From assembly GCA_964016885.1 (NCBI GenBank), contig OZ024742.1:340256001-340320000 (forward strand): 64,000 bases of DNA, written 5' to 3'. The notes under the pieces are model-generated. The model ran no database searches. It was not told the DNA's origin and saw only the letters and a list, made by a program, of their open reading frames with translations. Position numbers and translations under genes: made by a program. Position 1 is the stretch's first letter; each line of letters starts with the position of its first letter. The DNA is from Eledone cirrhosa (taxonomy: Eukaryota). Shown one piece after another: positions 36-27,580 of this stretch.

Positions 36-230
36 AGTTTTAATATAGATGAGATTCTACAGGACTAGAACTGTTTCATTCATTAGAAATCATCAGGAAA
101 CACTGATGATTTCTAATGAATGAAACAGTTCTAGTCCTGTAGAATCTCATCTATATTAAAACTGTTATACTCTGCTATGTATTGAGTACCTTACTTACTG
201 TGGTTACCTCCGATTCAACCCGGAATAACG
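36..230 (+). mobile_element. Fold-back PLE terminus in (TA)n: 61-bp perfect inverted arms (36-96/103-163) plus 67-nt unpaired 3' extension; truncated HHR core at 103-136
   Basis: Arms are exact reverse complements around loop GAAACA. Contains CTGATGA-tttctaatgaat-GAAA-cagttcta-GTC. (TA)n on both sides. Confidence 0.75.
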
Positions 231-273
231 TATATATATATATATATATATATATATATATATATATATATAT

Positions 274-870
274 AATTGAGATGAGCAGACAAACAAACAT
301 TAAACAATTCCTTTAAAAATTTAAAAAATGATTTAAATATCTACCTGTTCATAATGCTATTACCGGCGGTTTCGCTTTACAAAAGATTAGAAATTCACAG
401 AATTTCTAACGGAAAACCAAAGTTCATCAGATAGCTATTTCCACTCTATAGGATCAGGTCCCACAGCCTGCAAATATATTGCCAACTACCATTTTATTAG
501 CGGTAAGTTCACGTGCGGGCCACTTTAACGGCCATAAGTCATACGAGCTGGTAGTTGGCAATATATTTGGAGGCTGTGGGACTTGATCCTATAGAGTGGA
601 AATTGCTATCTGATGAACTTTGCTTTTCCGTTAGAAATTCTCTGAATTTCTTATCTTTTGTAAAGCGAAACCGCCGGTAATAGCATTATGAACAGGTAGA
701 TATTCAAATCATTTTTTTAATTTTTAAAGGAATTGTTTAATGTTTGTTTGTTCTGCTCATCTCAATTTTTATAGTTCTGGTATCTCAAATTAGTACCATT
801 GAATTATATTATAGACACCCTATATATCTCTATGCGTACTTAGTACCCAGAGAGATATTTACCTTATTAT
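274..870 (+). mobile_element. Fold-back PLE terminus in (TA)n: arms 274-491/549-767, extension 768-870
   Basis: ~218-bp inverted repeat with few mismatches; contains a complete HHR; flanked by (TA)n. Confidence 0.8.
604..685 (+). ncRNA. Type I hammerhead ribozyme with long helix II (mirror copy on - strand at ~355-436)
   Basis: tgctat-CTGATGA-actttgc...gtaaagc-GAAA-ccgccgg-TA-atagca: helix I tgctat/atagca, helix III ccg/cgg. Confidence 0.8.
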
Positions 871-1111
871 ATATATATATATATATATATATATATATAT
901 TTATTAAAATAACAGATTAAAGTTTAAGCAAAGAATCGTTGCTTTCACCCATCTACGGGATCTTCTGAAACTAACAAAGTCAATCTGTAAACGCAGAAGT
1001 GAATATTTCAAAAAACGTTGCAACCGGAGAAAGACAGGAAAACGATACTTTGGTTCGTGGAAACGTTCCCTGTCAAAGAACGGGAAAAAACGAATATAAT
1101 ACGTCATTATT

Positions 1112-1229
1112 TGAGTTCAAATCCCGCCGAGGTTAACTTTGCCTTTCATCCTTCCGGGGTCGATAGAATAAAGTACCAGTAATGCATTGGGTAATTGCTG
1201 GCCTTGTGCCAAAAAGTAGAAACAATTAT
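1112..1229 (+). mobile_element. tRNA-derived SINE family A, 3' part
   Basis: B-box GAGTTCAAATCC, core GCCTTTCATCCTT..GGGGTCGATA, end AGAAACAATTAT; repeated many times in the window. Confidence 0.85.
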
Positions 1230-23570: not shown

Positions 23571-25670
23571 ATTGTTATACTTTGGGAGGGTCATGTTGCC
23601 AATAAGAAACACACGCACCAGATGCTTTCACTTCAATTTATTATAATACATTTATAAATTTAGGAATTTATAAATTTCCGGTTGGTTGGTTCCACAACCA
23701 GTTAGTTGTTTATATATTGACAAAGTTCTTTCGTCACACATTCTGTGACCTCTTCAGTGACTGGGGATTCTTTTCTTTGTTTTTGTGCTTCTCCCTTGTT
23801 CTGTCCTACGCCATCTTGTTTCTGTGCGCGTGTTGTGTGCTCAGTCTGCGCATGCGCCACATCCGGGTGTCTGTTTGTGTTTATATTCGTTTATTTATTT
23901 GTTTATTTACATGTTACTGGTTGGTTGTTTGTTCTATGTGCGTGTGTGTTTTCATTTTGTTCTTAATTGTAAGTTGTGATGTTGCTGTTCCACTCATGTT
24001 TTCTATTTAATTTTGGTTGTAAATTTGGTTGTAAACTTAAAGAACAATTAGAAGACCCCTAAAACCTGATAATGTACTCCAGCTACGTTGATGATATAAA
24101 CATCGTAGTTAAAGCACCCCCACTAGAGAACAGTCAGGAATTACAGAAAAACACAATGGAAAGCATCCAGCAAATAGCTATCTCCATCCACCAGAGTATT
24201 AGTGTTACTATAGACTACCCAAGCAAACACCCCAACCATCGATACCTGTACTAGACACAGAGCTCTGGTTAGATACCATTAATAACAAAAAACAAATCCT
24301 CCATTCCCATTATGCCAAACCCATGACATCCAAATATCTGATCCACCGAAACTCAGCTGTTTCGGACCATACCAAAATCAACATACTGATTGCGGATTTG
24401 GTACGGGTGATGAGAAACGTGTCCCGCATGTGCAACCCCGAAGAACTAGAGAGACACATACAACACTTCATCCACCGTATGCAGTTCTCTGGTTACAATC
24501 AGAGAGATAAAATCAGAGTGTATAGAGGAGCCAGAACCAAATGGGAAAAAATGGTAAATAATGACACAAATAGGACCTGCCCCTTGTATTGGAGCAAATT
24601 TTGGAATAGAATGGAAAGAACTAGGAATAAGGCTAATAGAATAAACTCATGGTATGATAGCAATAAATACCAGAGTGTAATGTTCATCGATACAACCCCT
24701 AGAGGTGAATTAGCTTACAAATTTAGAAGGGCCCTAGATAAACATAAACTCAATATTAAGATAGTAGAAAGACCAGATACCTCTATAAAAACACTTATTA
24801 GCAAGACATACCCTTTTCAAAGACCTCCCTGTATAGATAAGAAATGTATAATCTGTAAACTAAGCCCCCCCCCCCCATATTAACTGTCAAACTAGAAATG
24901 TAGTATATAGCATAAGATGTACTGAAGGACAATGTAGTGATAAGAATATAGTGTACATAGGTGAGACAGCTCGTAGTATAGGAGAACGGATAAATGAAGA
25001 CTGGCGAGACCTTCAAGATAGTAAAGAATCATCTGTACTCTACCAACATGCTAAAATAGAACATAAGGGTAAATTAGAGGACATAGAAATAAAAATAGAA
25101 TCTACACACAGAAAAGACGCAATGTTTAGACAAATCACAGAGGCAATAAACATAAAAGAATTACAACCAAAATTAAATAGAAAACATGAGTGGAACAGCA
25201 ACATCACAACTTACAATTAAGGACAAAATGAAAACACACACCCACATAGAACAAACAACCAACCAGTAACATGTAAATAAACAAATAAATAAACGAATAT
25301 AAACACACACAGACACCCAGATGTGGCGCATGCGCAGACTGAGCACACAACACACACACAGAAACAAGATGGCGTAGGACAGAACAAAGGAGAGGCACAA
25401 AAACAAAGAAAAGAATCCCCAGTCACTGAAGAAGTCACAGAATGTGTGACGAAAGAACTTTGTCAATATATAAACAACCATCTGGTTGTGGAACCAACCA
25501 ACCGGAAATTTATAAATTCCTAAATTTATAAATGTATTATAATAAATTGAAGTGAAAGCAACTGGTGCGTGTGTTTCTTATTGGCAACATGACCCTCCCA
25601 AAGTATAACAATATCGGTTTCAACACACGTTTTCAGATAAAGAATCTTGCTAAACAAATTCAGAAACGAA
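23571..25670 (+). mobile_element. 5'-truncated PLE (YVDD RT, Cys-knuckle linker, GIY-YIG) with inverted arms 23571-24022/25161-25612 in (TA)n
   Basis: ~450-bp inverted repeat; coding remnants; HHR-like motif at 25422-25464. Confidence 0.88.
24035..25220 (+). pseudogene. Frameshifted PLE RT C-terminus/thumb and GIY-YIG endonuclease
   Basis: YVDDINI, YAKPMTS..IHRNSA...LVRVMRN, CIDKKCIIC, YIGETARSIGERINE...H...H...RQITEAINI..LNRKHEW. Confidence 0.85.
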
Positions 25671-25721
25671 ATATATATATATATATATATATATATATAT
25701 ATATATATATATATATATATA

Positions 25722-26370
25722 TAAGGAAAAAAGATGAAATCGAAAATGCAACTGGAGTCTTTATTTTTTTAAATATATATTTATTTGGTTCCTTTACCGT
25801 TTTCGCAGTCCTTCTGCTTTTCAAAAGCAGAATTGAGATGGAGGGTCTGTGGTTTTTCTCACATCTGGTTGGTCTTTGAATGTTACTTCTGTTTTATATG
25901 GAAAAAAGTCGCTCGAAATGCCAGGTTTTTAAGAGAAGTAATTTGGTTGGTTGGTGAATAAGTATAATAAATTTCGCGCCAGTTTGCGTTACAAAGTTCT
26001 TCAAACAAAGAGGGAGGGGGCTCAGTTTGTTTTTTCATATATGAGTGAAGTTTGGTTGGTTGATGCAGTCACGTGAATAAGCACATCAGCTTTCGCGCCA
26101 GGTATGTCCAATATTCTATCATATATCTCAACACACAACCCAAGAAATGTGGAAGCTTACAACATTATTCACAAGAACATCCCACTATTGAAACAAGACC
26201 CAAGAATGAAAAAAGCCCTTGAAACACACAAAATAATCAAAAGCCAAAGACAACCGAAATCACTAAAAACATTACTCATCAATGCCAAATAATCTTTTTT
26301 CCTTATACTTTCACTCGTGTAGGACACCTTGGTTATTTTTCATTTTGTAAAAAAAAACCTCACTTTCTAA
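25722..26370. mobile_element. Rearranged Neptune-like PLE remnant in (TA)n
   Basis: STHNP...IPLLKQDPRM...SQRQPKSLKTLL linker at 26104-26292; short terminal inverted match AAGGAAAAAAGAT/ATCTTTTTTCCTT; HHR on - strand. Confidence 0.65.
25791..25827 (-). ncRNA. Minimal hammerhead, U3-A8 variant
   Basis: Minus strand: ctt-TTGAAAA-gcag aagga ctgc-GAAA-acgg-TA-aag. Confidence 0.55.
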
Positions 26371-26682
26371 TATATATATATATATATATATATATATATA
26401 TATATAATATATATAAACACACACACACGCGCGCGCGCACACACACACGCGCGCGCGCACACACACACATATATATATAAAACATATATATGTATATACT
26501 TAAATATGTACATTCATACATATACGTACAAGCACACACACACACACACACACACACACACATATATATATATATAATATATATATATATATATATATAT
26601 ATATATATATAGAGAGAGAGAGAGAGAGAGATAGATATTTATATATATATATATATATATTTATATATATATATATAGAGAG

Positions 26683-27580
26683 AGAATTAGTATATCTACC
26701 AACATATGTATACAGATGTACACCCATGCTAGCAAATATATATATTATGTCTTAGTACCTTTGTGGTTCTATGTAGGGGGATGAAGAACAAATATATGAA
26801 AGACGTAAAATAAGAAAATTAAAAAAATTAAAAGTTAACTTACTAAAATTTTCACTCCAACTAATTAGTTTCTGTAAGGGAATAAATATAGTTACGTAAC
26901 ATAACTATAGAGAAGTCCTTACGTCATCGGGGAGTCTGTTCCCAGGCAATGCGCGGACACTAGGAACCCATATAAAAATAATAAATTTTAGTAAGTACGT
27001 TATTTTTAATTTTTTAAATTTTCTTATTTTACGTCTTTCATATAATTGTTCTGCATCACCCTGCATAGAACCACAAAGGTACTAAGACATAACATATATA
27101 TTTGCTTGCATGGGTGTACATCTGTATACATATGTTGGTAGATATACTAATTCTCTATATTTATCTCCAAATTATTTGTTGAGTAAAACTTGCCAAAATT
27201 TACTGCTGTGATTCATGGTAGTAGTAGGCTCTTGTCATAATACCACCCCACTCCTCACTGATTAACCTCAGTGTCACGTGATTGATTCTTTAGAATTTGC
27301 CACTGACCCAGTAGTCAGTGAATTTTTTCAGTGCTTTGGAATTTAGTCCCCGCTAGCTTTGTTCCATCCACTGAATTATTATTTTTATATGGGTTCCTAG
27401 TGTCCGCGCATTGCCTGGGAACTTAGTTGAGAATAGACTCCCTGATGACGTAAGGACTTCTCTATAGTTATGTTACGTAACTATATTTATTCCCTTACAG
27501 AAACTAATTAGTTGGAGTGAAAATTTTAGTAAGTAAGTTAATTTTTAATTTTTAAAATTTTCTTATTTTACGTCTTTCAT
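26683..27580 (+). mobile_element. ORF-less HHR element family F (retrozyme-like): inverted arm 26683-26982 plus ~540-nt tandem unit
   Basis: 26983-27042 recurs at 27522-27580; HHRs on both strands; (TA)n flanks. Confidence 0.8.
27437..27518 (+). ncRNA. Type I hammerhead ribozyme (family F)
   Basis: actcc-CTGATGA-cgtaagg...ccttaca-GAAA-ctaattag-TT-ggagt. Confidence 0.85.

Follow-up and report, generated by a model that had tools for sequence, protein, structure and literature searches.

How inverted PLE insertions with a tail on one side originate is a question about two decades old. In vitro work from 2024 showed internal initiation, and the accessible part of that report (PMC11167929) leaves the RNA signal unnamed. 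Several such insertions lie in the window analyzed here, a stretch of 64,000 nucleotides of Eledone cirrhosa DNA. A first-pass annotation had described a bulged stem-loop just beyond the end of the shorter inverted arm and proposed it to be an RNA positioning element that sets an internal start. We found that insertion ends do fall at fixed sites 5 to 9 nt 5' of the hairpin; the proposal missed a second hairpin and took the families as unrelated. Hydra units carry the hairpin twice, and we refer to the copies as H1 and H2.

All 11 hairpins listed previously were found in place. Their consensus is RYTC, an upper stem, T(T,C,A) and GARY, followed by RCY, and the lower stem differs by family (ACTC/GAGT, GCTC/GAGC or GTTC/GAAC). 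The 168 family is represented by a fold-back mini-element at 37 to 230 (+ strand), flanked by (TA)n, with its short end at 162, its long end at 230, a hammerhead core at 103 to 126 and H1 at 169 to 187 (+). In the inverted element of the 770 family (274 to 867, +; hammerhead core at 610 to 637, long end at 867), H1 occupies 770 to 808 (+; core at 774 to 804) and has a GTTC/GAA lower-stem variant. The Hydra-clade PLE insertion of the 2080 family (901 to 2163) has short ends at 901 and 2073, a long end at 2163, and an endonuclease remnant inside it at 1149 to 1832 (−). Its H1, at 2080 to 2125 (+), has a long upper stem; the hairpin is present, with one correction to the earlier description: the first upper pair is a G·A mismatch in this copy, a position at which other members of the family have T. 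The inverted element of the 8045 family (7692 to 8130, +; hammerhead core at 7939 to 7980, short end at 8038) carries H1 at 8046 to 8065 (+), and H1 of another copy lies at 54889 to 54908 (−).

The Hydra-clade insertion of the 18278 family (14257 to 18349) has 820-nt inverted arms, an H1-type end at 14257, mirrored at 18269, and an H2-type end at 18349. It contains an open reading frame (ORF) for RT with a C-terminal GIY-YIG domain at 15472 to 17505 (−), which is 5'-truncated, has one in-frame stop and shows the Hydra diagnostics; its orientation makes the hairpin strand the sense strand. H1 at 18278 to 18301 (+) begins 8 nt past the short end. Further H1 copies of this family lie at 9807 to 9830 (−), in a 188-nt mini-copy (9759 to 9946), and at 52521 to 52544 (−). 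The 27165 family is an ORF-less, hammerhead-bearing tandem-unit element (26678 to 27578; unit of ~540 nt) with an H2-type left end and an H1-type right end. Its hairpin at 27165 to 27183 (+) was correctly placed at the short-arm end. The unit has two hairpins, and this is its second; the long end precedes the first hairpin of the following unit. The first hairpin of the unit itself, at 27048 to 27071 (+), has a GTTC/GAAC lower stem and lies 8 nt past the right-end site. Another copy of the family has both hairpins (47626 to 47649 and 47745 to 47763, both +), and the second hairpin of a copy at 51512 to 52065 lies at 51660 to 51679 (+). A further Hydra element (27948 to 28636) carries H1 at 28015 to 28039 (−). 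The hairpins at 27048 and 28015 were absent from the earlier list.

The upper stems were said to vary in sequence yet keep pairing, and this holds: with anchors placed by sequence alone, 39 of 48 hairpins form the first upper pair in the 2-nt bulge register, compared to 5, 6, 10 and 17 when bulges of 0, 1, 3 and 4 nt, respectively, are imposed. This pair is C-G in 24 hairpins and T-A in 13, and on a quick protein tree, H1 hairpins with C-G fall in six separate places. The covariation check, made on fixed-length sets of 10 hairpins each, was divided: in the 21-nt set, 9 cells changed on both sides and none of 500 shuffles scored as high, whereas 39 of 500 shuffles did so in the 18-nt set. The lower stem is invariant in metagenome alignments and therefore yields no covariation there, and since H1 and H2 are paralogous, conversion could mimic compensatory change. 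Most single hairpins do not exceed shuffles in stability (in 11 of 15, z is weaker than −1.4); in isolation they fold weakly, and several favor other folds.

To ask whether the hairpin is more than chance folding of AT-rich DNA, we used 119 systematic 10-kb stretches (1.19 Mb) from elsewhere in the genome, in which 81 asymmetric elements were detected blind. In 33 of the 81, a fold with an upper stem of at least 3 bp began no more than 25 nt from the short end, compared to a mean of 1.8 (maximum, 8) in dinucleotide shuffles, 4 on the antisense strand, 3 in the arm interior and 3 in a shifted window, bearing out the earlier claim. Relaxing the upper stem to at least 2 bp raised the count to 46 of 81, with a core offset of 8 or 9 nt in 30 of the 46; 8 of the 46 come from the non-Hydra 23571 family, where the fold is at chance level. 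Held-out families gave 11 of 25 (shuffles, 1.6; maximum, 6), or 8 of 23 without two 770-family entries and one chance-like fold. Among marine-metagenome relatives, the hairpin precedes the ORF in 25 of 32 clusters (shuffles, 1.5) and is present twice in 16; in these relatives, its upper stem covaries and the bulge is 2 nt. A model trained on these metagenome hairpins only ranked seven of the previously annotated sites first in the window, and in 0.8 Mb it placed 11 of 28 matches at an inverted-arm end, compared to 0 of 600 controls. Three metagenome insertion ends were mapped automatically, and all three lie within 6 to 11 nt of a hairpin.

The families had been called unrelated, a description that does not hold for those tied to an ORF (18278, 2080 and 8045, plus five found elsewhere): judged by their protein motifs, these elements are Hydra-clade PLEs. 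The 18278 family has an intact 717-aa ORF, which, like the ORFs of the 2080 and 8045 families, contains RWR and DKT (the Hydra diagnostics being an RWK-like motif and DKG changed to DKT); the CxCX5C linker, CxxC and CxH around the EN end, and the C-terminal GIY-YIG were read by eye in translations. The (TA)n insertion target was confirmed for these elements. A hammerhead core was matched in the 168, 770, 8045 and 27165 families, only a variant core in the 18278 family, and none in the 2080 element; in 21 metagenome clusters, a core lies upstream of the hairpin. The 168, 770 and 27165 families, of which the latter two are ORF-less tandem units, are provisionally placed in the clade by the hairpin motif alone. 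No Pfam match to the Hydra ORF was obtained, and no relative was found among viral contigs. In Rfam, none of the best 150 of 251 matches reached the gathering score, and these were microsatellite or palindrome matches. The hairpin is clade-specific and shared by descent, not convergent. Its reported absence from the 8405 and 23571 families was borne out at both ends, and these belong to other PLE clades; the 33755 element was likewise negative at the short end, the end examined. A bulged stem of 5 bp plus 2 bp spanning the 23571 tail was rejected as chance, given a descriptor background of 8.7%, its lack in a 45-nt subfamily and no second copy. Since other PLE clades form tails without the motif, the hairpin is not the general solution.

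The leader of a Hydra unit reads a hammerhead, in families with a matched core, then about 45 to 60 nt, H1, about 57 to 175 nt, H2 and, about 15 to 65 nt farther on, ATG. Copies that read through the long end reveal H2 5 to 9 nt past it in five of the six families first described. The distance is 5 nt in a tandem copy of the 770 family (locus L054), 6 nt in tandem copies of the 18278 family (locus L141, 1369 to 1390), 6 nt in the 2080 family, in which H2 is followed by ATG, and 9 nt in the 8045 family, in which it is followed by the Hydra ORF; H2 was at the predicted place in the 27165 family and two more families as well. In the 168 family, no recurring read-through continuation appeared among the 100 listed of 427 matches or in 12 loci, and H2 was not seen. 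A second hairpin proposed in family 30 was withdrawn, the query being TA-rich. Because H2 lies directly past the long end, the PLE "tail" equals the H1-H2 spacing.

Ends are also paired in a regular way. In the 18278 family, the systematic loci gave 51 TA-junction ends, of which 44 lay 8 to 9 nt before H1 or 5 to 6 nt before H2, and all 37 such ends in ORF-selected loci did so, counts that leave out 11 and 12 non-TA ends, respectively. Among 45 two-ended insertions, 39 were H1/H2, none was H1/H1 or H2/H2, and 6 had an off-site end; partners are in opposite orientation. None of 61 H2-ended arms in two families was faced by another H2 arm, and 11 of 39 and 11 of 22 were without an H1 arm that the script recognized. 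Exceptions are H1/H1 pairs at loci L051 and L175, an apparent H2/H2 pair at L172 and ends falling inside H1. Microhomology of at least 3 nt was present at 12 of 14 hand-set end sites, compared to a 7% background, and the sequence after each end matches the (TA)n target over 3 to 5 nt. We looked for H2-arm truncations clustering at the H1 site; 4 of 39 lay within 4 nt and most were 40 to 60 nt upstream, a result that does not enter our argument.

Copies end a few nucleotides before H1 or H2, and the hairpins therefore likely direct the copying enzyme to its starting point. We consider it probable that each leader hairpin docks the RT on the RNA and fixes an internal start just upstream, leaving insertion ends 5 to 9 nt 5' of it. 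This is the best reading because the tail boundaries of a Poseidon-clade element are internal RT starts (PMC11167929, in the part available). The GIY-YIG endonuclease would nick both (TA)n strands, and two RT molecules, one per hairpin, would sit on the same tandem or circular RNA. Each would anneal a nicked TA end to UAU/AUA immediately 5' of its hairpin; the two would copy in opposite directions, and their truncated cDNAs would be joined head to head, with the H1-H2 spacing as the one-sided tail. ORF-less families may retain the hairpins for mobilization in trans. A bolder form of the proposal, on which we are evenly divided, is that the hairpins constitute a conserved twin RNA dock from which a dimeric, telomerase-related RT initiates both cDNAs simultaneously on the two nicked (TA)n strands, with a single RNA as template, building the asymmetric inverted insertion in one step, and that they offer a portable 25-nt start signal for any RNA.

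It is conceivable, if unlikely, that the hairpins act in DNA, where the GIY-YIG endonuclease would recognize them in single-stranded cDNA or extruded element DNA and cut a TA-rich site 5 to 9 nt upstream during resolution of an intermediate. Craig et al. ascribed the tail to endonuclease-mediated resolution (PMC8557442), the Drosophila virilis endonuclease required tail sequence for plasmid cutting, as reported in PMC11167929 (both as far as the available text goes), and both end sites, being TA-like, are possible cut sites. Internal noncanonical pairs (three G·T and one A·C) do not separate folding as RNA from folding as single-stranded DNA. Against this, the tail boundaries of the anole element were mapped as RT starts on RNA (PMC11167929, same part), an H2-type end would need cDNA to run past H2 first, and strict H1/H2 pairing is more simply explained by one RNA with two docks. 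That the hairpins instead direct RNA cleavage or termination just upstream, generating two RNA 3' ends copied by ordinary end-primed TPRT, strikes us as quite improbable. The same fixed offsets would be expected, and sequence alone cannot tell this from internal initiation; however, the sole PLE tested initiates internally and needs RNA 3' of the start (PMC11167929, as available), and independent RNA ends would yield H1/H1 and H2/H2 insertions, neither of which occurred among the 45 two-ended insertions of the 18278 family.

H2 precedes ATG closely, and the sequence is more conserved than folding energy requires, as might be expected if the hairpins had another job, such as packaging, translation control at ATG, RNA dimerization via the near-palindromic GAGYRCTY or hammerhead gating, and lay near ends by descent, with TA-like microhomology setting the ends. 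We regard this as very unlikely, since the offset from end to hairpin stays at 5 to 9 nt even though H1 and H2 are separated by anything from 57 to about 175 nt of unrelated sequence, many further TA-like sites in the same UTRs are unused as ends, and ORF-less families retain both hairpins. Chance folding in AT-rich sequence has a negligible probability: a loose descriptor fits 8.7% of random 120-mers (214 of 2,468) and single folds are weak, but the counts at short ends (33 of 81 versus 1.8) and in metagenome clusters (25 of 32 versus 1.5), the fixed register and the near-invariant sequence already refute it. RT positioning, the reading we prefer, predicts that the start site shifts when the hairpin is moved or mutated, and because intact young copies, 99% identical, are present in this genome, the test is practical. 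The hairpin provides a defined candidate cis-element, conserved in octopus-like, coral, sea cucumber and metagenome Hydra elements, and gives annotators a criterion for where PLEs and retrozymes end. It bears on how telomerase-related RTs acquired internal RNA template use, and RNA-templated genome writing might gain a compact start signal from it.

Telomerase, whose RT is related, aligns a short primer on an internal template that has protein-bound RNA beside it; its boundary element, 5' of the template, halts synthesis, whereas the hairpins described here sit 3' of the start. Hepadnaviral epsilon (PMC10534774, in the portion available) is also a bulged stem-loop; it is bound by RT and specifies a start, roles that for our hairpins are proposed. 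In epsilon, the 6-nt bulge itself serves as the template for protein priming, whereas here the bulge is 2 nt, there are two copies, the start would lie 5' outside the stem and nicked target DNA would be the primer. Ends 5 to 9 nt 5' of the stem do not fit epsilon-like priming from the bulge. Both analogies, drawn in the first-pass annotation, are loose, since epsilon primes from its own bulge and the telomerase boundary element is 5' of the template. What the hairpins do show of an epsilon-like positioning element is a conserved structure at a fixed distance from ends taken as starts.

Our literature search found no description of this hairpin motif. With published Hydra-clade PLEs (PMC8557442, in the parts available), these elements share the protein diagnostics, targeting of (TA)n, one ORF whose C terminus carries GIY-YIG and, in several families, a hammerhead close to the 3' end. 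Copies are again inverted and truncated at the 5' side, with a tail on one side that measures 57 to 175 nt here and 30 to 40 nt there. The main text of that paper, as available, mentions neither stem-loop nor hairpin. By eye, in its consensi as available, the motif is clear in three of six (Hydra-2_Amil, Hydra-2_Ajap and, twice before ATG, Hydra-1_Ajap), degenerate in Hydra-1_Amil and Hydra-1_Crog, and not seen in Hydra-1_Obim. Non-LTR retrozymes (PMC7229834; bioRxiv 10.64898/2026.07.22.740005) consist of tandem units that lack an ORF and carry a type I hammerhead, as in the 26678 to 27578 and 770 families; the accessible portions of both reports mention no hairpin and describe no signal acting in cis for the PLE enzyme. 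A further parallel is the anole Poseidon PAc, in which, according to the available part of Frangieh et al. (PMC11167929), RT starts in vitro at two internal sites bounding the tail, both target strands are extended, RNA 3' of the start is needed and a dimer is predicted. Both systems have two tail-bounding internal sites and an AT-rich target, the sites here being insertion ends from which we infer starts; a hammerhead lies upstream of them in PAc and in those families here in which a core was matched. Internal initiation was thus already known in another PLE; the twin hairpins and the pairing of H1 with H2 ends are new here.

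The window, part of a 3.0-Gb genome that is probably from an octopus-like cephalopod, is rich in (TA)n and retroelements and contains some ten elements flanked by (TA)n whose two inverted arms differ in length. All 11 bulged hairpins listed in the first-pass annotation were present, with a single mismatch in the copy of the 2080 family (families are named by the window coordinate of the hairpin or element). To test for chance occurrence, arm ends were called by a detector blind to the hairpin in 119 evenly spaced 10-kb stretches, yielding, window included, 143 ends (93 asymmetric, 44 symmetric, and 6 dropped). 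Individual hairpins fold weakly. Outside the window, a fold with an upper stem of at least 3 bp lay no more than 25 nt from the short end in 33 of 81 asymmetric elements, compared to 1.8 in shuffles, 4 in antisense, and 3 each in the interior of the arm and in a shifted window; the hairpin is thus commoner at short ends than in shuffled sequence, a comparison that the annotation had proposed. Among families without a representative in the window, 11/25 were positive (shuffles, 1.6), or 8/23 under a stricter count in which two were removed as the window's 770 family and one was discounted as a chance match; among the negatives are other Penelope-like element (PLE) clades and inverted pairs that are no PLE ends.

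Several other repeats were encountered. Symmetric, tail-less, MITE-like inverted-repeat elements of 180 to 450 nt with (TA)n flanks occur at five loci (L054, L069, L082, L088, and L176), and a hairpin-negative inverted element at 33756-34081 has a tail of 44 to 54 nt. An 849-codon plus-strand frame with an RVT_1 domain (3538-6087; Pfam E value, 6.9e-30) belongs to a non-LTR retrotransposon unrelated to the hairpins, and a dispersed 120-nt SINE-like repeat is found in both orientations (1106-1229, 2734-3160, 6645-6768, and 10276-10390).

In most of the window's hairpin families, the hairpin is one of a pair, with H1 generally following the short end and H2 the long end. Tandemly arrayed copies of the 18278 family at L141 (unit, 3531 bp) show H2 beginning 6 nt past the long end, before the ATG. 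Read-through copies, found by patterns demanding only G/C after the end, place H2 at +6 in the 2080 family and +9 in the 8045 family, and H2 is likewise present in loci of the 770 and 27165 families and two further families. In the 168 family, H2 did not turn up, and no recurring read-through was seen among the matches listed. Read-throughs of the 8405 and 23571 families revealed no second hairpin, so the absence of the motif reported for these families in the first-pass annotation holds with read-throughs included.

The distance from arm end to hairpin, which the annotation had suggested plotting, is fixed in the 18278 family: TA-junction ends fell at the two sites in 44/51 cases in systematic loci and 37/37 in ORF-selected loci. 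Insertion ends also show microhomology, a (TA)n match of at least 3 nt directly following the end at 12 of 14 hand-set sites (background, 7%). At three loci (L200 and L205, after 1521; L214), the sequence starts exactly at the H1 site after a TA-rich junction, marking a 5' boundary there. A 2080-family mini-copy (29405-29524) departs from the offset rule in that its end lies within H1.

The two ends are also paired. Two-ended insertions of the 18278 family comprised 39 H1/H2, no H1/H1, no H2/H2, and 6 with one off-site end; loci picked for their H2 end supplied 18 of the 39, and the tally leaves out 3 candidates that contained an inner TA run. Opposite 39 H2-ended arms, from loci not selected for this family, the arm was H1 type in 26 and H2 type in none (11 not classified, 2 without an upstream run). 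For the 8045 family, 7 of the corresponding arms were clearly H1, 2 were doubtful, and none was H2; a further 11 were left unclassified, and 2 lacked a run. Exceptions to the pairing occur in families other than 18278 (L051, L175, and L172).

The element at 14257-18349 encodes a reverse transcriptase (RT) with a C-terminal GIY-YIG domain on the minus strand, and the hairpin strand is therefore sense. Its 18278 family has numerous intact copies, 98 to 99% identical (118 scored), whose 717-aa ORF shows RWR, DKT, CxCX5C, CxxC, and CxH, features that PMC8557442 (section 11) lists as diagnostic of the Hydra clade. The same ORF type was tied to the 2080 family, the 8045 family, and five others, so the description of the carriers as unrelated families has to be abandoned. 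Two hairpin-negative families, 23571 and 8405, could be linked to an ORF, and both proteins are unlike the Hydra type; from their motifs, we take the former to be Neptune type and the latter to be a canonical GxKF/DKG protein. Since it is common to Hydra-type ORFs and absent with the other two, the motif is a clade character inherited by descent. In the presumed Neptune-type family (23573-25670; L181-L210), the same hexamer in the unit follows both ends, with no twin hairpin, and this family may use a different start signal.

The 18278 family, which is young and abundant, has a fold shaped like a hammerhead (~18165-18252; ~1176-1265 in L141) whose core is variant and does not match CUGAnGA; this fold stops ~17 nt before the short end. 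Most mini-copies of this family (e.g., 9759-9946) measure ~190 nt and fold back at a point 40 to 60 nt ahead of the short end, in the palindromic, hammerhead-like region. ORF-less tandem units of ~500 to 540 nt that carry a hammerhead and both hairpins (26678-27578, 47453-48139, 51512-52065, 274-867, and L054) are putative retrozyme-like partners of Hydra PLEs.

An ORF search returned 2049 relatives, and an alignment of 68 of them led to 76 metagenome loci, 47 of which had at least 150 nt before the ORF and formed 32 clusters. With a descriptor that includes a 3' flank added after data inspection, the motif preceded the ORF in 25/32 clusters, twice in 16, compared to 1.5 and 0.07 in shuffles and 4/196 in ORF windows; the antisense count of 9 reflects the partly palindromic motif. 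Requiring an upper stem of at least 3 bp left 15 clusters, 2 with the motif twice (shuffles, 0.19; antisense, 1). The layout is conserved, with an H1-H2 spacing of 57 to 83 nt (n = 16) and a hammerhead-to-H1 distance of 44 to 61 nt in 20/21 clusters. On visual inspection, published consensi from coral and sea cucumber bear the motif too, clearly in 3/6.

With anchors chosen from sequence alone, the first upper pair formed in 39/48 cases at a 2-nt bulge versus 5/48, 6/48, 10/48, and 17/43 for other bulges. Upper positions 1 to 3 exceeded shuffled partners (P ≤ 0.001, kinship ignored), and the first upper pair of H1 was Watson-Crick in 21/22, with C-G found in six unconnected parts of a rapidly built tree. 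The covariation anticipated by the first-pass annotation was borne out in part: ten 21-nt hairpins were 95.7% paired with 9 double changes, a level reached in 0/500 shuffles, whereas ten 18-nt hairpins covaried no better than shuffles. A model built on the 21-nt metagenome set ranked seven of the annotated sites first in the window and recovered copies at 28015-28039 and 47626; it missed those at 770, 2080, 27048, and 51660. Within 0.8 Mb, 11/28 hits were located at an inverted-arm end (controls, 0/600).

These hairpins probably serve as docking sites for RT. One RT would dock on each, and each nicked TA strand would anneal to the 3 to 5 nt immediately 5' of a hairpin; two cDNAs would then be copied in opposite directions from one tandem or circular RNA and joined head to head, leaving a tail equal in length to the H1-H2 distance. 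Three alternatives seem unlikely, each marginally less probable than the one before: an endonuclease signal acting at the DNA level, hairpins that direct the RNA ends, and another function altogether.

Searches of the PLE and retrozyme literature, in which subscription papers were covered in part, returned no description of the motif, and the twin hairpin is a real, clade-specific cis-element that has apparently gone undescribed so far. PLE tails, hammerheads, and initiation at internal sites are already covered there. For the anole element of the Poseidon clade, PMC11167929 reports that RT starts at two internal sites bounding the tail, that both target strands are extended, and that RNA 3' of the start is required, and a dimer is predicted.
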